Assembly: GCA_038064915.1 (NCBI GenBank)
Contig: JBBTSB010000012.1
Span: forward strand, 1 to 37,577
Direction: 5' to 3'
DNA: 37,577 nt
DNA from: Patescibacteria group bacterium
Lineage (GTDB): Bacteria; Patescibacteriota; Minisyncoccia; 2-02-FULL-40-12; IGHO2-01-FULL-4-A
Position numbers and translations under genes: made by a program. How positions within the stretch are numbered: position 1 is the first letter of the stretch; each line of letters opens with the position of its first letter. Below the pieces are notes generated by a model that was given only the letters and a program-made list of their open reading frames with translations, searched no databases and was not told where the DNA came from. This document shows positions 2,232 to 34,861 of this stretch, piece by piece.

Positions 2232-4535
2232 TTACCTCCCAATCTTACCCAAGTAGGTGTTGTCCGCATTGCGAACGATGGGATTTCGAATTTCAATTTC
2301 AGATATTTGAGAATTCTCCAAAAGGTCCGAAGTAACGAGCAGCCCAGTCAGCAAAAGCAGAAGTGTGGCAACAACCGAGAGCATCTTCGTGCTGGGCACG
2401 GCAAACTTTGATCGGAAGAAATGATAGCCGAAGGTGATTGCAAGGCTTGCAAGGACGGTGGCAGTAGCGCCATCCACGCCAGTCTGCACTTGTCCAGGAG
2501 TGACAAGAATATTTTTGGCAACATAGATTGGAATGCTAGATTCCCGTTCCGAAATGCCGTCCGCTCGGGCAAAACCCCGATTGACAAGGATAGTAGTTCC
2601 CGTCTGAAACGCAGAGGCATCCCTTACGACTGCTCGGAATGTGATTTCCAATGAATCGTTCGGATCAAGAGCTCCCACGCTGATTCCATTTCCCGTAATA
2701 CCGTCGGGGTACGTGGAGCCGCCAATACGAGTTGATCCAACTTCATAGATCATTTCCGGCGGGAGAGCATCACGAACGATGATGTTGTTGAGACGGGTAT
2801 TGGAATCTGAAGTCACCAAGAGGGTAAAGCGCACGAGATCACCGGGTGATGCATCCACACGAGTGAGCGGCTGGGTGTCTTGCTTGCTCAAGTTCTCTCC
2901 AAATTTTTCAATACTCATAGACAGGAAAGGACTCTGTGTTGTAAATGGCGTAGGAGTTGGCGTTGGCGTGGGAGTCGTTCCGGGAAGCGGTGTAGGAGTA
3001 GGTGTCGGCGTGGGTGTTGGGGTTGGTGTGGGTGTCGGGGTGGGGGTAGGCGTAGCCGCCGCAACACGTCTAACCCAGAACCATTGATGTGCGCTTCCAC
3101 CCGAAGTAACGGTCACCGTTCCTGTCGTGGGTCCGGTTGATTGCCACCCTGTCGGCATGGTTAGAGACACGGTATAGGTGCCAACCGGAAGCGCAACGGA
3201 ATAGTATGGATCGGTATTACACTTGTCAGTGCGAACGGTGCCATTGGTCGGACCTTGGTAGGTTACTACAAACCCGGATTGCAAAAGTTCATTGGTACAG
3301 GAAAGGGTCGACGACGAATCTTTGATAGCTTTTTCCCCGGTATCTCGAACCACATCTCCATCAAGGTCCTCAATGATGCGGCCCAGCAAAGCCCCACCTG
3401 CTGGAGCAATAGTATCAAAAGCAGCACAAATGGGTTGGATACTGTTGGCTTGGGAAGTTCCCCCTGCGTGGCGGGCGGCTATCGTGGTGCCAGCTCGCGC
3501 CAAAGAAATATTTCCAACTGACAAAATTAATTTTGTCTGGCTTTGCGGTAAGTCTCCAATAGGTGCCGAATCGGCAATCGTCCCCGCACCATCGCTCAGA
3601 CGTACGTAGTAGCGTTCGTTGGTTTGATCAGTGGAATTTGGATGATCATCATACGACATGAGAGTCACCCCATAGGAACCTGCTGGTAGCGCAAACGCAT
3701 AGGGACCCATCTGTGTTGATGTTCCAGCGACGCTATTATCAGTTAAAACGCCAGTAGGAAAGTTAAAGATCGTCCGGCCTGCTTGGGCGGTAATTCCGCA
3801 TGAAGGACGAGTTGCCGACGCGGTGGTTGTGCCTCCACCAGAAGTACCTCCGGTACTTCCACTTCCCCCGGTACTGCCGCCGGTCGTCCCTCCACCGCTT
3901 GTACCACTACCGCCTGTTGCCGCAATAATATTAATCTTTAAATTCGGCGTTAGCGCACCAAACCACCCCGGACCACCGTCGCCGATCATCTGCCATTGAA
4001 AATCTTCCTGGGTACCGGGAAAGTTGGGGGCAGTGATAACAAAGGTAAACGTGGCATTTTGGTTTGGAGGAACGCTTGGTTGTTGCAGATATACTCGGCT
4101 AGCATTGATCCAATCCAAGTTGTCACGAGGATTTTGCGTGCCCAGCTTGTATCCCAAATCTCCGCCCGTCCAGGTCGTAGTCCCGGTATTTTTCATCACC
4201 ACGGTAACCGTGCGCTTTTCTCCAACGCTCATAGTATCGCCATTGGCAATGCCACTGTACGAAACAAATTGGGCATTGTTTATCGCAGTTGTGCTTGCGG
4301 TACCTCCCCCGGTGGCAACTACTACGCATTTTTTGGTTGTTGTATTCCAATCACAAGCATAATCCTCGAGACAATCGGTTTCATTTGCATAGCTCGAACA
4401 AATTGCAGCCTCCGACGTGAACAGTGATACATAAAAATTCGTGTGCCTAAAGTACAGCGCCCAGAACGCAAAAAGCGACACTACCACGACGAGTGTCAGA
4501 GCAATAATCAAGCTTCGTTTAGATCCTACTTCCAT
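2232..4535 (-). CDS. Large secreted/surface protein. N-terminal TM anchor, Gly/Thr/Ser-rich region, (PT)n linker, an NBR1-like Ig-fold segment and a DUF11-like conserved repeat domain near the C-terminus, then a C-terminal hydrophobic segment.
   Basis: 767-aa ORF. N-terminal hydrophobic helix, long TPTPTPTP... run, low-complexity GGSGTSGGG tracts, C-terminal hydrophobic stretch followed by RSK. The domain calls come from motif resemblance only. Confidence 0.6.
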   Translation of the reverse strand: MEVGSKRSLIIALTLVVVVSLFAFWALYFRHTNFYVSLFTSEAAICSSYANETDCLEDYACDWNTTTKKCVVVATGGGTASTTAINNAQFVSYSGIANGDTMSVGEKRTVTVVMKNTGTTTWTGGDLGYKLGTQNPRDNLDWINASRVYLQQPSVPPNQNATFTFVITAPNFPGTQEDFQWQMIGDGGPGWFGALTPNLKINIIAATGGSGTSGGGTTGGSTGGSGSTGGTSGGGTTTASATRPSCGITAQAGRTIFNFPTGVLTDNSVAGTSTQMGPYAFALPAGSYGVTLMSYDDHPNSTDQTNERYYVRLSDGAGTIADSAPIGDLPQSQTKLILSVGNISLARAGTTIAARHAGGTSQANSIQPICAAFDTIAPAGGALLGRIIEDLDGDVVRDTGEKAIKDSSSTLSCTNELLQSGFVVTYQGPTNGTVRTDKCNTDPYYSVALPVGTYTVSLTMPTGWQSTGPTTGTVTVTSGGSAHQWFWVRRVAAATPTPTPTPTPTPTPTPTPTPTPLPGTTPTPTPTPTPFTTQSPFLSMSIEKFGENLSKQDTQPLTRVDASPGDLVRFTLLVTSDSNTRLNNIIVRDALPPEMIYEVGSTRIGGSTYPDGITGNGISVGALDPNDSLEITFRAVVRDASAFQTGTTILVNRGFARADGISERESSIPIYVAKNILVTPGQVQTGVDGATATVLASLAITFGYHFFRSKFAVPSTKMLSVVATLLLLLTGLLVTSDLLENSQISEIEIRNPIVRNADNTYLGKIGR

Positions 4536-8694: not shown

Positions 8695-8821
8695 ATTCCC
8701 ACCTCCGATCTATTATTTAAACTGAATGTCCACCTGTAGTATACGCTACCTGCAAAAAAAGATATAAACACGTGCACATTCGGCCTGTTGGCCTCAGTAC
8801 TTCCTCACTCACGTTCGGTCG

Positions 8822-11134: not shown

Positions 11135-13094
11135 CTCTGCTGAAACTGAAGATCGCATTTATAAACTCTGGATGGAGAGTGGGGCTTTTGCGCCCCAAGG
11201 CGATGGTGAACCCTACACCGTCATGATTGCGCCGCCCAATATCACGGGCTCACTGCACATGGGTCATGCACTCGAAAATACGATCTCGGATATTTTGGTG
11301 CGGTATCATCGCATGAAAGGATTTCGGACACTCTGGGTACCTGGCGTGGATCATGCGGGAATTTCAGCACAAAGCAAAGTAGAAAAAGAACTTTCCAAGC
11401 AAGGTATCAAAAAACAGGACATCGGACGCGAAGCGTTTGTGAAAAAAGTTGAGGAGTGGAAGGAGCAGTACGGGCATATTATTTTGGACCAGCTTAAAAA
11501 ACTCGGCTTCTCCTTTGATTGGAGTAAAACTGCCTACACGATGGATCCGGCTTACAAGGAAGAGGTGAAGAAAGCGTTCCTGCATTACAAAGAAAAAGGC
11601 TGGATCTACAAAGGAAAGCGCATCATTAACTGGTCGGTGAAAGACCAGACTTCCCTATCGGACTTGGAAATTTACTATCAAGAACAAAAAGATACGCTGT
11701 ATTATCTGAACTATGGTCCCATCACCGTGGCTACGACACGACCCGAGACCATGCTTGGGGATACGGCCGTTGCGATTCATCCAAGTGACGAGCGTTATAA
11801 AAATTTAATTGGAACAAAAATTACACTGCCGATCACCGGGCGCGAAATACCCATCATCGCCGACCATGCGGTTGAAAAAGAATTTGGTACGGGAGCCGTA
11901 AAAGTCACGCCGGCGCATGACTTTTTGGACTTTGAAATCGGCCAACGGAATAATCTTGAGCAGATTGAGGTGATAAATAAATTTGGAAAGGTCGTTGAGG
12001 GATTTGGGAAATTTTCAGGATTGAAAATTCTTGATGCGCGAAAAGCAGTTATTGAAGAATTGGAAAAATTAAACGTGATAGAAAAAACAGAAAAATACAC
12101 TCACAATGTCGCCTACGGGGAGCGCTGTCAGACGGTGATTGAGCCGTTGTTGTCAGAGCAGTGGTTTTTGAAGATGGACGAGCTTGCGAAAAAAGCAATC
12201 AAAGCAATCGAGGCTGATGAAGTTCATTATCATCCGGAGCGATGGAAAGACGTTGCGCTCACGTGGCTTCGCAATATTCGCGACTGGAATATTTCACGGC
12301 AAATTTGGTGGGGACATCCAGTGCCAATAGAGGGTGAGACTGATGTACTCGATACCTGGTTTTCTTCAGCGCTCTGGCCGATGGCAGCACTTCCTAAAGA
12401 GTCCTACCCAACGCAGATGATCACAAGTGCCCGAGATATAATCCACTTGTGGATTACGCGCATGATTTTTTCGGGGTTGGAGTTTCGCGGCGAGGTTCCG
12501 TTCAAAGATGTGATCATTCATGGTACGGTACTCACCAAAGATGGCAAGCGTATGAGTAAATCACTCGGAACCGGTGTCGATCCTCTCGAATTAATAGAGA
12601 AGTACGGCGCTGACGCGACCCGTTTTGGATTGATCTACCAATCCATCGGCGGCCAGCAAGATATCAAGTACGGTGAAGAGTTTATTCTTACTGGAAAAAA
12701 GTTTGCGAATAAGCTATGGAATATAAGCCGATACATAATCGGCAAAAATCAAAATGGAAATATCAAAAATCAAAATGATGAAGAAATAGTATCGAAAATT
12801 CACACAATCGAGGAACAAACTACAAAACATATTCAAAATTACGAGTTTGGAGAGGCGCTGCATCTTCTCTACGATTTCATCTGGCATGAATATGCCGATA
12901 AATACATTGAAAGTACCAAAGACAAGTCCGATTCTGAAACATTTTCCACTTTGATATTTACATTTTCAACTTTGCTAAAGCTCCTCCATCCCTTCATGCC
13001 ATTCGTCACCGAAGAGATCTGGGGAAAACTCCCCTCGTGGGAAGGCAAAAAATTGCTTATACTAGAATCGTGGCCTTCGTCCTCATCCTCGTAG
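11109..13094 (+). CDS. valS: Valine--tRNA ligase (compact form, 661 aa)
   Basis: HMGH (HIGH-type) and KMSKS motifs, TTRPET plus GTGAVKVTPAHD CP1 editing-domain motifs, an anticodon-binding region ending ...TEEIWGKLP...WP. There is no C-terminal coiled-coil extension. Confidence 0.9.
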   Translation: MTELSKAYNSAETEDRIYKLWMESGAFAPQGDGEPYTVMIAPPNITGSLHMGHALENTISDILVRYHRMKGFRTLWVPGVDHAGISAQSKVEKELSKQGIKKQDIGREAFVKKVEEWKEQYGHIILDQLKKLGFSFDWSKTAYTMDPAYKEEVKKAFLHYKEKGWIYKGKRIINWSVKDQTSLSDLEIYYQEQKDTLYYLNYGPITVATTRPETMLGDTAVAIHPSDERYKNLIGTKITLPITGREIPIIADHAVEKEFGTGAVKVTPAHDFLDFEIGQRNNLEQIEVINKFGKVVEGFGKFSGLKILDARKAVIEELEKLNVIEKTEKYTHNVAYGERCQTVIEPLLSEQWFLKMDELAKKAIKAIEADEVHYHPERWKDVALTWLRNIRDWNISRQIWWGHPVPIEGETDVLDTWFSSALWPMAALPKESYPTQMITSARDIIHLWITRMIFSGLEFRGEVPFKDVIIHGTVLTKDGKRMSKSLGTGVDPLELIEKYGADATRFGLIYQSIGGQQDIKYGEEFILTGKKFANKLWNISRYIIGKNQNGNIKNQNDEEIVSKIHTIEEQTTKHIQNYEFGEALHLLYDFIWHEYADKYIESTKDKSDSETFSTLIFTFSTLLKLLHPFMPFVTEEIWGKLPSWEGKKLLILESWPSSSSS

Positions 13095-15536: not shown

Positions 15537-15622
15537 TGGTGCTGGGGAGAGGAGTCGAACCTCCATGTCCTTACGGACGGTAGCTCCTAAAGCTACTGCG
15601 GCTGCCATTTCGCCACCCCAGC
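15537..15622 (-). tRNA. tRNA-Leu (anticodon TAG), 86 nt, long variable arm, CCA encoded
   Basis: Reverse complement: acceptor GCTGGGG/CCCCAGC, anticodon stem GTAGC/GCTAC with loop TTTAGGA (G37), variable arm with GTCC/GGAC stem, T-arm GGAGG-TTCGACT-CCTCT, ACCA 3' end. Confidence 0.8.
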
Positions 15623-15724
15623 ATGAGAACATCCTAGCACACCAGCTAACCCTGGACAAATTTTAAAAATGATGTAGAATAATACCACGGTCAATCCTGA
15701 CCGCACGACCTTAGGAGGTCAACC

Positions 15725-17470
15725 ATGGGTACGTTCTTTGTCGTTCTTTGCTCTCTGGTTCTGATCGTGGTCTTCAAAAGCCGTCTTCACGTCCCAGAGA
15801 ACAAGGCTGCTCTCATCAGGTGGGAGACGCCACAAATCCCTTTCATTAGGGATATTCTTGGCAGGCTCGGCCTACCGATCAACCCGATTGGCGGCAACGA
15901 TATCGTCGCCCTCTCCGGTCAAACGGGAGGATGGAGTGCCATACATTGGGCATCCGGCGATTACTGGATCCCACTTGTAGGATTCCGATTCCTTGCCAAG
16001 GTTCGCACCTTTGATCCGATGGAAGTTAAGGAAAATCAAGTTGGCCTCATGACGGCCAAAGTTGGGAAAAACCGTCCGCAGGGACAGAATTACCCGACTC
16101 CATTGGACGATCTGGACTTCTCGAACGGCGAGGATTTCATCCGTCGTGATGGCCAGAGGGGTCTTCAACTACAAACTCTGGGTCCTGGCAAGCATTTCTG
16201 CAACCCTGAAATTTGGGAGTTCGAACCTGTCGACAGGGTGGATATCGAGCCAGCGATTTTCCCGGATGATCCGTACAATCGGGGTAAGCCGACAGACGAA
16301 GCTTGGCCGAGACTAGGCCTCGCTGATCTCAGAATCGGAAGAATCATCCCCGAAGACGAGCGAACAAAACGAACTCTCGCGGTAGTAGTGCCGGGCCATG
16401 AAAACTTCGCCAACTTGGTCGCCTTCATTCAAAACGGTGGCGAGCAAGGAACACAAATCGAAGTCCTTGAGCCAGGTAGCTCCAGGATCAATACCGGCTA
16501 CGTGGGCATTGAAATGATCTTCGCAACTCGGGTGCGTCCTGGGTGGACGATCGTGCTTATCTCCAGTCAAGGCGATGAGCCCGATGAAAACGATTTCATA
16601 CCCGTAGCGGAGTTGGGCGGACGTCGGCCGGTTCACGTCTTGAAAAAAGGCATCGTCGGGAAACGCGGTACCTTGGCTGACACCCTGGGTCCTCGGGATT
16701 GGTTCATAAATCCCCGTCGCTACAAGCGAATACTGGTGAACACCTCACCCCAGACTCTCGCTTGGGACAAGACACAATACGACGAAAAAGACAAACCTCT
16801 GCGCCAGTTTCCCCCACTGGACGTGGAGAGCAAGGAAGGTTTCAAGTTCAACGTCGTCGGTGCCCTGGTCTTTGAGGTTAAGGACCAAGATGCTCCGATG
16901 ATGACTCGCGCTGCGGGGGGGGAAATCGAGAAACTCGTCAAAGCGATCGGTCCTATGGTTGGACAGGTTGTCCATCGGATTTGCAGGCAACATCCGATGA
17001 TCGATTTTGTCCGAGATACCAAGAAAGGGCTGGCGGCTGAGTTGACCAAAGCTCTCAAGGCGGTTCTGTCCTTCTACTATATCACGGTTCATGGATTCGA
17101 AATCGTGGACCTGGACTACGAAAGCAGAGGAGACAAGAACTTGGCCGAGTTCCTGAAGCAGTTGGCCGAGCAAGAGATTGCCGCACAGCGAGAGCTTGCC
17201 AACAAAGCTGGGATTCCAGCCGAAGTAGCCCGGATCGAACTGGAAGAAAAGCGCGGGGAAGCCGATGCTCAGAAAGTTATAAAGGTCGGCAAAGCAGAAG
17301 CTGAAGCTAAGACTCTGGTCGGCAACGCAGAAGCCGAAATCATGGCAAAGAAGGGAGCCGCCGTAGTCGCACTACTCCCCTCTGCTGGCTTGAGTAAGGA
17401 TGTGGGCCAAATCATTGTCGCCGGTATCACGGCTCTATCCAGTGCGCTTCAAGACAGTAAGAAGACGTAG
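15725..17470 (+). CDS. Flotillin-like SPFH/band-7 family protein with C-terminal EA-repeat coiled coil
   Basis: 581 aa. N-terminal TM helix. C-terminal AQRELANKAGIPAEVARIELEEKRGEADAQKVIKVGKAEAEAKTLVGNAEAEIMAKKG is typical of the flotillin (YqiK-like) EA-repeat tail. Strong SD (AGGAGG) 8 nt upstream. GC content is clearly higher than in surrounding genes. Confidence 0.5.
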   Translation: MGTFFVVLCSLVLIVVFKSRLHVPENKAALIRWETPQIPFIRDILGRLGLPINPIGGNDIVALSGQTGGWSAIHWASGDYWIPLVGFRFLAKVRTFDPMEVKENQVGLMTAKVGKNRPQGQNYPTPLDDLDFSNGEDFIRRDGQRGLQLQTLGPGKHFCNPEIWEFEPVDRVDIEPAIFPDDPYNRGKPTDEAWPRLGLADLRIGRIIPEDERTKRTLAVVVPGHENFANLVAFIQNGGEQGTQIEVLEPGSSRINTGYVGIEMIFATRVRPGWTIVLISSQGDEPDENDFIPVAELGGRRPVHVLKKGIVGKRGTLADTLGPRDWFINPRRYKRILVNTSPQTLAWDKTQYDEKDKPLRQFPPLDVESKEGFKFNVVGALVFEVKDQDAPMMTRAAGGEIEKLVKAIGPMVGQVVHRICRQHPMIDFVRDTKKGLAAELTKALKAVLSFYYITVHGFEIVDLDYESRGDKNLAEFLKQLAEQEIAAQRELANKAGIPAEVARIELEEKRGEADAQKVIKVGKAEAEAKTLVGNAEAEIMAKKGAAVVALLPSAGLSKDVGQIIVAGITALSSALQDSKKT

Positions 17471-17566
17471 TACACGGCGCGTAGTTGCGCCACGGGCATG
17501 GGATGAGCCGGAAACTCGGCTTGTTCCATGCCTGTTTTCATATTGAAATCCATATATAAAGAGAAA

Positions 17567-17598
17567 CGCGCGCGATCCGGTGTTACGGAGCGCGCGCG
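17567..17598. terminator. GC-rich 13-bp hairpin between convergent genes (likely bidirectional terminator)
   Basis: CGCGCGCGATCCG-gtgttacg-CGGAGCGCGCGCG, between the flotillin-like gene (+) and the proline-rich protein gene (-). A second hairpin, GGCGC-GTAGTT-GCGCC, lies at 17476..17491. Confidence 0.45.
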
Positions 17599-17626
17599 GT
17601 GAACGTTGTAGAGGCGTTCATGGATG

Positions 17627-18103
17627 TTACCTTCCCATGACGCGCTTGTTGGTGCGGCGAAGCTCATCGTTCGTCCGCTGGGTCTGAACATGGACGAGAA
17701 TGGGTTCCGCTGGAGGCGGGGCTGTCGGCCGCTCGTAGAACGCGGCCGGAATGTCGTCGGGTCCCGCATCACTCGCGCCTTCTCCAGATCCAGACGAGGG
17801 AAAGAACTTATTGATCCCCCACGTGATCAGGAGTGCGATGAGAGCGAGAGCTGCGAGCGCAACGGCCCAAGTCGGAAATCGTCTCGGCGCGGGACCAGGT
17901 GCAGGTGGTGGAGCAGGCGCAGCGACCGGGGGTACCGGAGGTGCGCCAGGCGGAGGAGGCGGAGCTACAGGCGGCACTGCGGGTGGAGCCGCGGGAGCGC
18001 CAGGAGGAATCGGTGCGATGACTGGAGCAGGCGGAGTACTGGAAAGGAAGGTGCGCGTGAAAAAGCTTTTCACGCTGGCCCACCTTGCCGCGAACCAGGC
18101 CAT
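17627..18103 (-). CDS. Proline/alanine-rich single-pass membrane protein
   Basis: Internal Met start (MAWFAARW...) whose ATG abuts the stop of the upstream gene. A PPAPVIAPIPPGAPAAPP... tract, then the TM helix WAVALAALALIALLITWGI. The opposite strand in this GC-rich stretch gives Arg-rich and Gly-rich ORFs, judged spurious. Confidence 0.4.
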   Translation of the reverse strand: MAWFAARWASVKSFFTRTFLSSTPPAPVIAPIPPGAPAAPPAVPPVAPPPPPGAPPVPPVAAPAPPPAPGPAPRRFPTWAVALAALALIALLITWGINKFFPSSGSGEGASDAGPDDIPAAFYERPTAPPPAEPILVHVQTQRTNDELRRTNKRVMGR

Positions 18104-18846
18104 CACTTCGTTTCCTCGATGGCCGGCTTTTCGATGAAGAACTCGAGAGCCGGTACCTCGATACCACCCTCCTTCAGACGATGCATGGCGACGGTATCGC
18201 CGCCAGTGACGTCTGGATAGACCCACGACATCTTGATCGCGGGTTTCTGGTCCGTCACTTCCTTGACGAGAGCGCGCGCGCCGAGCTGAACGCTCGAGCG
18301 ACTCGCAACTCCGGAAGCGTCGAAGGTCTCGGTTGCGCCCGGTGCGATGAACCAGCGAGTCTGCTGGTCCTCCGCCAGGACTTCAGCCGGGTACTTCTCC
18401 GACTTGTTGGTGAATGAGAAGTACGTCCTGCTGATCGACTCAGCCGGAGCCGACTTCCCACCCAGGGCCGATTTCGTCGGCGGGGCGTCGGAGTCTTCGA
18501 CGGTCGCGTCGTTGACGTCCTCGTAGCCGGCTTCGGATTCGCCGGAATCGTTGCCACTGTCGGCATCGCGGAGGGCGTCGTGACCCATTTGACCTGCCTT
18601 ATGAGCCGCCACGAGCTTGCTACGGCGATACTTCAGGTAGAGCCGGTGTTCGCGAAGATCCGCGTCGCGGTCGATGCCGCGCTTGTAGAGCTCCCCGACA
18701 TCGCGATCGTCGCCGGCATACCCGCCGGAATAGAAACTCTTCCTTTCCTGACATTGCGTGTAGCGCACGTAGGCGTCGGCGATGGAACCGCCGAACGCCT
18801 GCGTCGCCGACGCGAGCAGGGTAACGAGGATGGTTACCAGCCTCAT
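18103..18846 (-). CDS. Secreted protein of unknown function (signal peptide)
   Basis: N-terminal MRLVTILVTLLASATQAFG is a signal peptide. A strong SD (AGGAGG) sits 8 nt upstream of the ATG. GC-rich. Confidence 0.6.
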   Translation of the reverse strand: MRLVTILVTLLASATQAFGGSIADAYVRYTQCQERKSFYSGGYAGDDRDVGELYKRGIDRDADLREHRLYLKYRRSKLVAAHKAGQMGHDALRDADSGNDSGESEAGYEDVNDATVEDSDAPPTKSALGGKSAPAESISRTYFSFTNKSEKYPAEVLAEDQQTRWFIAPGATETFDASGVASRSSVQLGARALVKEVTDQKPAIKMSWVYPDVTGGDTVAMHRLKEGGIEVPALEFFIEKPAIEETK

Positions 18847-18951
18847 TTCAGACCTCCTGGCGGATTATCCGCCTTTTGAAAACTAAAAACCCAGCAACCA
18901 AACCATTTTGATTGCCGGGTTTATTATACACCTTTATGAAATTTTTGTCAA

Positions 18952-27132: not shown

Positions 27133-27753
27133 TTAGATCAGTTCCGCAATCACCACAAGACGCTGTTTGGTAGAAAAAAGTGGAGCGCAGGTGATGAGAG
27201 TAATGGTTGCTTTGTCGGTGGAATTCAGTACAGAAAAATCAGTCGGTTCGATGATTTTGATTTCGGTTGTTCGATACGTATACGTTGTCCCTTTCCAAGA
27301 CACCTTAATCTCATCTCCGGCACGAATTTTGTCCAAAGCGTAAAATGTATTGGAAACGGGAGGAAGGTAGCGGAAGCGGTGACCAAAAATCACCGTGTTG
27401 CTTGCGTATTCCGGCGTCGATGTTCCCGGAAATATCCAGCCGCCTTTGACGAGCACGTCGGCATCATCACTTTCAAAAATCGGCATGCTGATATCCAATT
27501 TGGAAATGAAAAGACGATTTTTTATATTCGGTCGGTTGGGGTCGAACGAAGGAGCTGGCGTCGGAGATGAAGAAAAAGAGGAACTTGCCATAGGTACGTC
27601 AACAACTCGTTCCTGGGCAACCGCATCGAGGTAATCCAAATCCCCGCTCAAGCCGAATGGCAAAAACGGAAACGACAAACCGCCCACACCCACGAGGAGA
27701 AAGATCACCCCGAGGATAATGAGCGGCTTGTTGAATGTTCGCTTGTTAGGCAA
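27133..27753 (-). CDS. Sortase family transpeptidase
   Basis: N-terminal TM anchor, catalytic His (VIFGHR), active-site TLITC motif (TLxTC) and a downstream Arg. Overlaps the upstream LPXTG-protein gene by 8 nt. Confidence 0.8.
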
Positions 27754-29155
27754 GGGTTGTAAGGAATCGGCGAGGCAAAGCTTGGGCTCCGACGAGTATC
27801 AAGAAGATACCTGTCAGCGCAAATGCAATAAAGAGAGAAGCAAGCATGCGATCGCTGAAGCCAAATCCTGTCGTAGGAAGCACATCGCTTGCACCGGCTA
27901 CCTGTCCGCCACTGGTTGTACCACCGGTAGTTCCACCGGTTGTAGCACCAGCAACTTCACCACCGGTTGTTCCACCCGTGGATCCGCCACCTGAAGTGCC
28001 ACCACCAGTGGATCCACCACCAGAACTTGTGGCATTGTCGTTGTAGGTAAGCGTGCAGGTCTTGGAGTCACCATTGGCGAGAGTTACATTACCAATAGTA
28101 TCGCAGTCTCCCGTGATACCTTCAAAGGTATAGTCTGAGCTCCCTACAACCGTCAACAGGATGGTCGATATTCCACCCGTGCCGGTGTTACTAAAGCGCG
28201 AATCGCCATCAACATCATAGGTTGCTGGGGTAACTGTGTACTGAATACCGGAGTTCAAGCCGCCTGCTGGAGTACCGCTGACAAGCGTGCCATTGGTCAT
28301 TTCAATCGTGTGAATAAAATCCTGTGATGTGGCAGTTCCGCCGTTGTCATTGATGACAATCGTTTTGACGATCAGAGTTGCTGACTGCGGAGGGGTGACA
28401 CCGCCTCCACCACCGCCGCCGCCCCCTCCACCACCACCAGTTCCTGGATCAGGAGTGGGTGTTGGAGTTGGAGTAGGTGTAGGTTCCACGCTCGGTGTAG
28501 GAGTTGGGGTCGGGGTTGGTTCAGGAGTTGGGGTCGGAGTTGGGCAGTTTGGATTATTGCCTGGATTGTCACAACTTGGATCAGAGGTTGGCGTAGGAGT
28601 CGGAGTTATCTCGGGCGTTGGTGTCGGGGTTGGAGTAATCTCTGGAGTCGGTGTGGGAGTAGGAGTTATTTCGGGGGTAGGAGTCGGGGTTGGAGTAGGA
28701 GTGGGGGTTGGCGCTTCAGTAGGTGTTGGTGTTGGGGTCGCGGTTACACCGGCAACACGAAAATTATCAGATTTCCCATCGACTTCTGATTTATACTCTC
28801 CTCCATCACCATCTTGAATTGTATATGCTGCAAAACAAAACTTTCCTTGAGCATCGGTTGTTATAGTTCCAGAAGCTACCACGGTGCTTGGGTCTGTAGA
28901 ACCAGGTTGTCCAGTTACCGTCCAGGTTAAAGTGACATCCTGATCAAACCCCGTACCAATAATATACATAACATCACCGACCTCATAGAGGTTTTTGTTT
29001 ACCGGATTTCCACAATCTCCCGTAGTAGTTTTAATATTTCCACCTGCTGCTTGCACACTTCCAAGCGGACCAATGACAGGCATTAAAACCATCGTGCTAA
29101 CAAATACGACCAGGAATACTGAGCTTGCGACTGCTAATAGTTTACTTTTATTCAT
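27746..29155 (-). CDS. LPXTG-anchored surface protein with PT-repeat linker and poly-Gly tract
   Basis: Signal peptide, an ([10 protein letters not shown])n repeat, a G13 run, then a C-terminal LPTTG motif followed by a hydrophobic helix and an RR tail: a canonical cell-wall sorting signal. Confidence 0.8.
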
Positions 29156-34124: not shown

Positions 34125-34808
34125 ATGGCTCGCTTCAAGGACAGAGAAAAGGCCGTACAACTTCGAATGCAAGGCAAAACGTATTCCGAAATACGACCCA
34201 TTCTCGATGTAAGTAAAAGTACGCTCTCGAATTGGCTTACAAATATTCGTGTTTCAAAAACACAACTCCAAGATATCGAGAAAAGTGCAAAATTGAAGCG
34301 AAGTGAAAACTATTTCCGAACTATTCGAGAACGAAAAGCACGTCTTGAGAAAGAATACTTCGAAGCAGAGAAAAGTACTTTAGGAAAAATTACCAAAAGA
34401 GACCTATTTATAGCTGGCCTATTTCTTTATCTCGGGGAAGGTACAAAAAGTACGGCATCGAAAATTTGTATTTCCAATAGTGACCCTGCAGTTATTGCTT
34501 TCGCGTCATTTTGGCTCAAGAAAATTTTAGGCGTAGAGAAAAAGAAAATGAGAGTCGCAATTCATCTTTATAGCAACATGGAAATTGAGAGGGAAAAATT
34601 GTTTTGGAGTAAGGTAACAGATTTGCCGATTGCACAATTTCATACACCCTACATAAAGAGGTCTAGAGCGAACAGGATCACCCACATCTCCCATGGTCAT
34701 GGAACTTGTAATATTATCTATGGAAATGTACACTTAAAACAGCGAATTATGGCAGGAATAAAGGTTATATTAGGAGATGGACTTGACGGGCGCGTAGCTC
34801 AATGGTAG
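34125..34808 (+). CDS. HTH-domain protein with one LAGLIDADG-like motif (possible degenerate homing endonuclease); its 3' end runs 21 nt into tRNA-Ile
   Basis: N-terminal resolvase/sigma-70 region-4-like HTH (GKTYSEIRPILDVSKSTLSNWL). FIAGLFLYLGEGTKS resembles the first LAGLIDADG motif of the ORF at 36778. No clear second motif. Confidence 0.4.
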   Translation: MARFKDREKAVQLRMQGKTYSEIRPILDVSKSTLSNWLTNIRVSKTQLQDIEKSAKLKRSENYFRTIRERKARLEKEYFEAEKSTLGKITKRDLFIAGLFLYLGEGTKSTASKICISNSDPAVIAFASFWLKKILGVEKKKMRVAIHLYSNMEIEREKLFWSKVTDLPIAQFHTPYIKRSRANRITHISHGHGTCNIIYGNVHLKQRIMAGIKVILGDGLDGRVAQW

Positions 34809-34859
34809 AGCACGTCACTTATAATGACGAGGTCCCTGGCTCGATCCCAGGCGCGCCCA
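34788..34859 (+). tRNA. tRNA-Ile (anticodon TAT), 72 nt
   Basis: Acceptor GGGCGCG/CGCGCCC, D-arm GCTC-AATGGTA-GAGC, anticodon stem CGTCA/TGACG with loop CTTATAA, T-arm CCTGG-CTCGATC-CCAGG, discriminator A. Confidence 0.75.
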
Positions 34860-34861
34860 CT

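Follow-up and report, generated by a model that had tools for sequence, protein, structure and literature searches.

Between a tRNA-Leu(UAG) gene and an operon coding for VirB2/TrbC-like pilins, the genome of a Paceibacteria (Patescibacteria) bacterium carries a segment of 3.2 kb with three protein-coding genes, which we analyzed in the context of the 37,577-nt stretch of DNA that contains it (hereafter the window; contig JBBTSB010000012.1 of assembly GCA_038064915.1, positions 1 to 37,577 of the forward strand). A long gene of the SPFH/Band_7 class lies next to the tRNA and is followed, in convergent orientation, by a pair of genes coding for a secreted protein of 247 residues (Sec247) and a small Pro/Ala-rich membrane protein (Table 1). 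An earlier reading of the same DNA, made from its letters without database searches (the sequence-only reading), had interpreted the segment as a GC-rich island acquired next to the tRNA from a high-GC donor.

Table 1. Coordinates of the genes and regulatory elements between the tRNA-Leu gene and the pilin operon in the window
Feature	Position	Strand	Basis
tRNA-Leu(UAG), anticodon tag	15537..15622	-	ARAGORN; Rfam tRNA 49.7 bits
SPFH upstream region with sigma-70-like promoter TGGACA-16-TAGAAT (15653-15680)	15653..15703	+	promoter scan
SPFH/Band_7 protein, 581 aa	15725..17470	+	Pfam Band_7
SPFH intrinsic terminator, 20-bp stem and T-run	17492..17535	+	terminator scan
GC-rich hairpin CGCGCGCGATCCG/CGGAGCGCGCGCG, gene-pair terminator	17567..17598	-	inverted repeat I9; T-rich run after it on the minus strand
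Small single-pass membrane protein, 158 aa as read	17627..18103	-	sequence
Secreted protein Sec247, 247 aa	18103..18846	-	open reading frame and AGGAGG 18858-18853
Perfect sigma-70 promoter TTGACA-17-TATAAT (18951-18923), then hairpin and T-run (18922-18887)	18887..18951	-	promoter/terminator scan

Residues 309-487 of the protein encoded next to the tRNA recovered a significant match to the Band_7 family (PF01145; E 4.7e-11, score 43.5 bits, cutoff 23.6), which is the sole Pfam family detected in it, and on these grounds the protein can be assigned to the SPFH/Band 7 superfamily as a long-form, putative membrane scaffold. It is predicted to begin with an N-terminal hydrophobic anchor, followed by a beta-rich extension of about 290 aa, the SPFH domain and a long C-terminal helix rich in Glu and Ala (EA), in which a repeat of the form AEAEAK...AEAEI is apparent by eye. 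Its Shine-Dalgarno sequence, AGGAGG at 15713-18, lies 6 nt ahead of the ATG. A comparison of the family profile with the PDB recovered prohibitin as a weak match (E 4.8e-4), and an AlphaFold2 model built from a 5-sequence alignment is of low confidence (mean pLDDT 48.3), with helices at residues 2-18 and 471-550. The proteins nearest to it in kind are presumably the flotillin-like SPFH proteins YqiK of Escherichia coli and FloT/YuaG of Bacillus subtilis, and one of its distant homologs is labelled 'uncharacterized membrane protein YqiK' in one database source. The window protein resembles them in possessing a Band_7 domain above the Pfam threshold, a predicted N-terminal hydrophobic anchor and a predicted C-terminal helix with Glu-Ala repeats, and its size is in the range of 500-650 aa typical of the long forms. 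It differs from them in the beta-rich region ahead of the SPFH domain, in the lack of an adjacent gene of the NfeD/YqiJ type (its neighbors being the tRNA upstream and the convergent orphan genes downstream), in receiving no match from NCBIfam models and in showing no more than 25% identity to any protein outside the subclade of relatives described below. No flotillin-specific C-terminal domain or equivalog was detected in the Pfam and NCBIfam searches. The proteins that it matches outside the subclade, at 21-25% identity, come from large genomes of 58-67% GC that do not belong to the candidate phyla radiation (CPR); the SPFH genes of the genomes with 67% and 58% GC have a GC content at third codon positions (GC3) of 0.86 and 0.75, respectively.

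The proteins of the convergent pair have far fewer connections to known families. Sec247 is predicted to start with a signal peptide, to continue with a helical N-domain and to carry a beta-rich C-domain behind an acidic linker, and inspection of its N-terminus by eye pointed to a candidate cleavage site between MRLVTILVTLLASATQA and FG. It received no match in Pfam, PHROG, NCBIfam or PADLOC, a word-indexed search of 5.8 billion clusters returned only the protein itself, and an exhaustive HMMER search of 1.84 billion representatives yielded no homolog; Sec247 is an orphan at the sequence level. Matches to half of an FN3 repeat in two giant proteins were weak and summed over repeats, and were not counted as homology. 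Its AlphaFold2 model from a single sequence (pLDDT 38.7), like that of the SPFH protein, is too poor for fold comparison. The ATG of the small membrane protein (18103-18101) overlaps the TGA of the Sec247 gene by one base (TGATG), its translation being apparently coupled to that of Sec247. As read, this protein combines a Pro/Ala-rich N-terminal part of 78 aa with a predicted transmembrane helix (residues ~79-98) and a tail of 60 aa. A sub-threshold listing of DUF6251 is all that Pfam offers for it, and PHROG, NCBIfam and PADLOC give no assignment for either gene of the pair. A plus-strand open reading frame of 198 aa (17624-18220), which the ENA record lists as a gene, is likely to be spurious: it codes for an Arg/Cys/Trp-rich product and overlaps the Sec247 gene, and the gene on the minus strand has conserved counterparts.

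The sequence-only reading had proposed an SPFH/flotillin-like protein of 581 aa with a perfect AGGAGG and an EA-repeat tail, a secreted protein with a signal peptide and likewise an AGGAGG, a Pro/Ala-rich single-pass protein whose ATG abuts the preceding stop, and GC-rich hairpins between the convergent units. Its gene models, Shine-Dalgarno sequences and hairpins are all recovered in our analysis, the hairpins as the two terminators between the SPFH gene and the gene pair. Its description of the entire 3.2 kb as a GC-rich island in a background of about 40-45% GC stands in part. The mean GC content of the window is 48.2%, and its strongest compositional outlier is a block of 1304 bp at 17567-18870, i.e. 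the gene pair, with 62.9% GC and a peak of 68%. Among the 112 windows of the sliding-window plots that the earlier reading had recommended, this block deviates most (tetranucleotide z=4.6, GC z=3.8). Its borders are sharp, near 17560 and 18870, and it is flanked by AT-rich spacers with 19% GC at 17536-17566 and 38% GC at 18847-18951. The SPFH gene is unremarkable in the same plots: with 53.4% GC, a GC3 of 0.59 and a tetranucleotide distance of z~1.4 from the window, its composition falls within the native range, as typified by the Hsp20 gene (53.1% GC, GC3 0.71) and the VanW gene (50.3% GC) of the same contig. Compositional borders as abrupt as those of the outlier block would also be produced if a contig from a CPR organism were fused in assembly to a fragment from a high-GC organism, a possibility that the sequence-only reading had raised. 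Both junctions are covered by an ENA contig from ERZ1292643, which derives from the 0.1 um fraction of groundwater of the Hainich well H51, and by a Logan contig from ERR3858113; a second Logan contig, from ERR3858115, extends over the right one only. These three independent assemblies match the window with a single-nucleotide polymorphism as the sole difference (17695 C/T, which is V137I in the frame of the small membrane protein and synonymous in the plus-strand open reading frame). Chimerism is excluded because the ENA contig and the two Logan assemblies, from different runs, agree across the junctions; contigs of relatives from unrelated studies also show the same arrangement.

A search with the VanW protein against one genome per GTDB species recovered 80 Paceibacteria loci (labelled Yanofsky-, Portnoy-, Azambacteria and similar; individual loci are designated L011, L012 and so on), which have in common with the window a backbone of LeuRS-PrsW-Hsp20-VanW-tRNA-Leu(UAG)-pilins-SBP-methyltransferase-GyrA. 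The tRNA-Leu gene follows VanW in 65 of the 72 related loci with enough sequence at this position. VanW, the tRNA and a pilin gene are found together in 44 loci: in 13 of these the tRNA is alone in a gap of <400 bp, in 25 the distance from tRNA to pilin exceeds 500 bp, and in 18 the distance from VanW to tRNA does so. The tRNA-Leu/pilin junction is a variable slot, with the tRNA belonging to the conserved backbone, of which it is a landmark and not an integration scar; an Rfam scan detected nothing besides this tRNA. For none of the three window proteins could a relative be detected in any of these 80 loci. The three genes are in this sense accessory genes in a truly variable slot, and that they code for membrane or secreted proteins, as the sequence-only reading had also stated, is upheld.

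The cargo of the slot in other relatives is diverse and includes LAGLIDADG endonucleases, a large serine recombinase, a HicAB toxin-antitoxin system, a DOT1-like methyltransferase and an IS30-like remnant. Free-standing LAGLIDADG genes directly adjoin the 5' end of tRNA-Leu(tag), in the slot that the module occupies in the window, in L016:12924-13577, L027:7458-8156, L041:8353-9018 and L096:1411-2220, all on the minus strand, and L037:3578-4216 resembles them by sequence; these endonucleases may help to make the VanW/tRNA-Leu/pilin junction recombination-prone. In or beside the slot there also occur a frameshifted IS30-like transposase (L099:6400-7240), a large serine recombinase, present in L011 only (11309-12904), and HicA/HicB, nucleotidyltransferase/HepT pairs and a YafQ-like toxin (L012:9345-9826; L091:2691-4520; L092:6301-6738). 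In the Yanofskybacteria locus L016 (11313-12718, minus strand), the interval from VanW to the tRNA holds two overlapping genes, which code for a 280-aa protein with a signal peptide and for a Pro-rich single-pass protein of 187 aa; this pair has 52-53% GC in a locus of 43% GC and is reminiscent of the window pair in both architecture and GC excess, without similarity in sequence. In eight more distant Paceibacteria the place directly behind tRNA-Leu(tag) that the SPFH gene has in the window is taken, in matching orientation, by a short-form Band_7 gene (290-410 aa), together with a co-directional partner coding for a membrane protein with a C-terminal beta domain (L062:11310-12887, L074:12538-14214, L082:3458-4950, L083:11578-13155, L081:11334-13560, L084:4455-6429, L085:15058-17306 and L071:11544-13066). 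Orthology between these short forms and the long SPFH protein was considered and is unsupported (hhalign probability 1.7%).

Closer relatives, likewise groundwater Patescibacteria and reached via homologs of VanW and their contigs, presented a different picture. In L093 (VanW 61%) the tRNA-Leu gene is followed by a 625-aa Band_7 gene on the plus strand, then, on the minus strand, by genes for a 110-aa single-pass Pro-rich protein and a 242-aa signal-peptide protein, and then by the pilins. L096 (VanW 62%) encodes a 541-aa Band_7 protein, whose gene is inverted, a 219-aa signal-peptide protein and a 68-aa membrane protein. L092 (VanW 66%, LeuRS 79%) encodes an SPFH protein of at least 518 aa, and its contig stops in a small membrane-protein gene of which it retains the 3' end. 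Elevated GC is common to these versions: in L093 the SPFH gene has 58.6%, the gene for the 242-aa protein 59.9% (GC3 0.79) and that for the 110-aa protein 63.4%, in a locus of 49.5%; in L096 the gene for the 219-aa protein has 63.2% (GC3 0.84) and the SPFH gene 57.9%; and in L092 the SPFH gene has 54.7% against 47% for the locus. The sequence-only reading had itself named relatives with the same genes at the same high GC as the observation that would refute its interpretation, and three relatives that have this module at the corresponding position, likewise with elevated GC, were indeed found.

The four SPFH proteins of the window, L092, L093 and L096 can be aligned over their full length at 23-35% identity, the window protein being 23-28% identical to the three others. 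This divergence is striking when set against the flanking genes, for which the identities between the window and L092 are 79% (LeuRS), 72% (PrsW), 66% (Hsp20) and 65% (VanW), as opposed to 25% for SPFH. Sec247 has positional equivalents in the 242-aa protein of L093, the 219-aa protein of L096 and a protein of L100, all with signal-peptide-like starts. The four secreted proteins are alike in position, size and predicted signal peptide, each has a linker that is either acidic or rich in Ser/Pro, and a short motif of roughly the form F.h.NK....h.h.DD....I.PG is common to them; they would on these features be positional equivalents and probable, if unproven, homologs. The L100 gene (5728-6310, minus strand) comes from a second Hainich H51 genome (VanW 57%) and combines elevated GC with a predicted signal peptide and the shared C-domain motif; it adjoins tRNA-Leu(tag) without an SPFH gene between them, and the contig ends inside or just past it. 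Among the small membrane proteins, the 68-aa counterpart in L096 also has a start that overlaps the upstream stop and possesses the exact LITWGI block seen at the end of the transmembrane helix in the window, and the tails of the L092 and L096 versions match each other. The Pro/Ala-rich N-terminal extension is missing from the L096 and L093 versions, and the true start of the window protein is therefore uncertain.

The regulatory DNA of the module behaves quite differently from its coding sequences. The block upstream of the SPFH gene (15653-15703) is 81% identical in nucleotides to positions 6924-6974 of L092, and a block at the SPFH terminator (17495-17563) is 80% identical to positions 8706-8774 of the same contig, with no nucleotide similarity detectable between the window and L092 in the SPFH coding sequence itself. 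A hairpin of the GCGC..CGGAGCGC type also trails the small membrane-protein gene in L092 and L096. Ahead of the Sec247 gene, the hairpin at 18922-18887 doubles as the terminator of the pilin operon and could also act as a leader attenuator; the same succession of near-consensus promoter, hairpin with T-run and Shine-Dalgarno sequence recurs on the minus strand in L093:15390-15500 and L096:5800-5890. A scan of metagenomes for the conserved terminator pattern returned nothing.

Decomposition of the GC excess, for which each protein was re-coded with the native codon usage of the window, revealed that its sources differ between the genes. The Pro-rich gene gains 16.2 GC points from its amino acids and 1.4 from codon choice, the Sec247 gene 5.3 and 9.2, and the SPFH gene 3.4 and 2.6, respectively, compared with -1.5 and +7.3 for the native Hsp20 gene. 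The small membrane protein gene is thus GC-rich through the Pro/Ala/Gly-rich composition of its product and the Sec247 gene mainly through a preference for AAG and for codons ending in C (NNC). The latter gene shows this in its positional composition (GC3 0.76 > GC1 0.63 > GC2 0.46). When the 42 window genes are ordered by how often their two-fold pyrimidine codons end in C and not in T, the genes for Hsp20 (0.81), Sec247 (0.78), SPFH (0.64) and the Pro-rich protein (0.58) take the first four places. TTC accounts for 33 of 41 Phe codons in the module against 65 of 227 in native genes of the window, and for 36 of 43 against 37 of 197 in L093; the module signature of TTC, AAC, AAG and ATC likewise distinguishes the module from the native genes of L093 and of L096, with a weaker contrast in L092. 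Across the four genomes the GC3 of the module genes is 0.59-0.84 despite the divergence of the proteins. A codon signature that has outlasted near-total protein divergence is taken to be maintained. Because this bias points in the same direction as that of Hsp20, we infer that it reflects expression-linked codon selection. The excess is restricted to coding sequence and the spacers of the module are AT-rich. GC-biased gene conversion, a process described for recombination hot spots (PMC4450053), was also considered as its source and was set aside in view of the AT-richness of these noncoding spacers.

In a neighbor-joining tree of PrsW, Hsp20 and VanW the window belongs to a subclade of nine members (bootstrap support 100%), whose basal split is straddled by the bearers of the module, with the window and L092 on one side and L093 and L096 on the other, and L095, L098 and L099, which lack it, are interspersed among them, the slot of L099 holding the IS30-like remnant. 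Given bearers on both sides of the basal split and non-bearers between them, a single origin before the radiation of the subclade followed by losses is the most economical explanation. We accordingly favor, at a probability of about 0.55, the interpretation that these genes are an old lineage-specific envelope module with maintained coding GC and not a recent import from a high-GC source. Under this interpretation the 3.2 kb would constitute a three-gene cell-envelope module, comprising a long SPFH scaffold and, convergent to it, an operon of two genes whose products are a secreted and a translationally coupled bitopic protein, and seated in the slot that tRNA-Leu(UAG) and the pilin genes delimit. 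It would have been acquired or assembled once, have been present in the common ancestor of the subclade and have later been lost from some members, and its GC-richness would be a maintained property of the coding sequences that carries no fingerprint of a donor. The three proteins appear to diverge much faster than the flanking housekeeping genes, which would fit diversifying selection on surface-exposed components; on the same reading the module may be highly expressed.

Several observations weigh against this interpretation. The SPFH proteins of L092 and L093 are more similar to each other (35%) than those of L092 and the window (26%), which is incongruent with the tree of the flanking genes and could mean lateral exchange in place of vertical descent. 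The known bearers number only four or five, some of them on short contigs. Homology among the four secreted proteins escaped phmmer, hhalign and leave-one-out hidden Markov models alike; Smith-Waterman scores compared with shuffled sequences support the pairs window-L096 and L093-L096 (z=4.4, p~0.001) and do not support window-L093. The genes for IF3, L20 and L35, presumed to be highly expressed and present in the window, lack the NNC bias, and the expression-linked reading therefore rests mainly on Hsp20; moreover, Sec247 also favors the G-ending codons AAG, CAG and GAG, and Hsp20 does not. Finally, the closest relatives of the long SPFH protein outside the CPR sit in genomes of high GC, and an originally foreign high-GC source of the module is possible, even if the present GC skew does not demonstrate such an ancient origin.

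This last thought can be developed into an explanation in its own right, namely that the founding lineage of the subclade acquired the module horizontally from a bacterium of high GC and that its GC is an incompletely ameliorated signature of the donor. The absence of the module from 80 outgroup loci with a shared backbone, the restriction of the outside relatives of the long SPFH protein to large non-CPR genomes of 67% and 58% GC, and the use of G-ending as well as C-ending codons in Sec247 are all in its favor. Yet with proteins that are 23-35% identical or no longer recognizable, synonymous sites should have turned over many times, and GC3 nevertheless stands at 0.59-0.84 in four genomes; within the module the promoter, spacer and terminator DNA is AT-rich, with 80-81% identity to L092 retained in two blocks of it, those of the SPFH promoter and terminator; and amino-acid content together with a Hsp20-like bias account for most of the excess. 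An acquisition of this kind appears unlikely to us as an account of the present composition. The donor lineage that the sequence-only reading had hoped to recognize by database searches was not identifiable, Sec247 being without homologs in either of the large collections.

The contrast between conserved regulatory and unalignable coding DNA also brings to mind the replacement-type flexible genomic islands of marine bacteria, which are hypervariable loci for surface structures at a fixed position with conserved flanks, defined within species from many strains. By analogy, divergent alleles of the SPFH and secreted-protein genes might be swapped by homologous recombination in the conserved anchors provided by the tRNA, promoter and terminator, and their extreme divergence would point to alleles of great age instead of rapid mutation. 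In the window and L092, the noncoding DNA on either side of the SPFH gene, 80-81% identical around proteins at 25% identity and coding sequences without a nucleotide match, is what such swapping would leave behind, as are the SPFH similarities at odds with the flanking-gene tree, the inversion of the SPFH gene in L096 and the presence in the slot of relatives of LAGLIDADG genes (L016, L027, L041, L096), a serine recombinase (L011), an IS30-like remnant (L099) and toxin-antitoxins. The fixed slot, conserved flanks, envelope or secreted cargo, versions that are unalignable in nucleotides and debris of mobile elements in the slot of relatives make for a resemblance, with the difference that the comparison here is between species or genera (VanW 57-66%) and that an exchange event is not demonstrated. 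Exchange predicts a second, closely matching allele in some other lineage, but none was found; conservation of promoter and terminator can be explained by function alone; and breakpoints would be needed at the borders of three separate coding sequences. We hence regard swapping as quite unlikely to be the primary explanation.

A recent integrase-type insertion at tRNA-Leu, by which 3.2 kb from a high-GC donor would have entered this genome only, is the scenario closest to that of the sequence-only reading. The status of 17567-18870 as the strongest GC and tetranucleotide outlier, the vicinity of the tRNA and the absence of the genes from most relatives would all be expected under it, and the module does resemble integrase-type tRNA-linked islands in consisting of accessory genes beside a tRNA with a patchy distribution and locally atypical composition. 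Integrases target the 3' end of tRNA genes. Of tRNA-Leu, it is the 3' end (15537) that points to VanW, and the module adjoins the 5' end, which is the wrong side. No integrase or other mobility gene was detected between 15623 and 18951 with Pfam, where Band_7 is the sole family, and PHROG, NCBIfam and PADLOC add nothing to this. No direct repeat or tRNA fragment of at least 12 nt was found, nor, consequently, the duplicated tRNA-Leu fragment or att-like repeat that the earlier reading had suggested looking for near 18850-18950. The empty-site comparison, in which the module is missing from the 80 outgroup loci and from L095, L098 and L099 and present in L092, L093 and L096, indicates that several members of the subclade share it, with its GC skew and with conserved internal regulatory DNA, and VanW identities of 61-66% exclude that these belong to the same population. 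Collections of phages, plasmids, IMG/VR viruses and JGI metagenomes contain no DNA or protein matching the module, and the SPFH gene is not atypical in composition. A recent insertion is thereby rendered highly improbable, and the proposal of horizontal acquisition at the tRNA from a high-GC donor is not sustained.

With regard to function, the neighborhood beside the pilin operon suggests a role of the putative envelope module at the cell surface, and the SPFH scaffold and the secreted/membrane pair may be functionally linked. Envelope modules that are specific to a lineage and lodged in a chromosomal slot of variable content are a known kind of arrangement. One could go further and envisage the slot as a dedicated diversification locus of episymbiotic bacteria, in which a highly expressed surface module has its coding sequences replaced or driven apart between conserved anchors with the help of the endonucleases and recombinases of the slot, and in which the preference for GC-rich codons could stem from gene flow out of host bacteria of high GC or from adaptation to such hosts. 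We consider this speculative and decidedly improbable; if true, the module would be a marker of host specificity. Irrespective of this, its position next to the pilin operon makes the small, fast-evolving module a reasonable candidate for functions at the cell surface or in host contact, which are very poorly characterized in such organisms. The junction between VanW, tRNA-Leu and the pilins emerges as a variable slot prone to recombination throughout the Paceibacteria. The GC skew of the module, shared within the subclade and explained by amino-acid content together with a codon bias that a native gene also has, illustrates that an abrupt rise in GC next to a tRNA need not mark a recent transfer in metagenome-assembled genomes from the CPR, which calls for caution in the automated calling of horizontal gene transfer.

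Elsewhere in the window, the genes at 27746-29155 and 2232-4535, both on the minus strand, code for large surface proteins with long (Thr-Pro)n linkers and Gly-rich runs. The former is the second-strongest tetranucleotide outlier in the window, and its product ends in LPTTG and a hydrophobic tail, with a sortase gene adjacent to it on the source contig. In addition, ARAGORN identified a tRNA-Ile with the anticodon UAU at 34788-34860 on the plus strand, a type of tRNA that is uncommon in bacteria.

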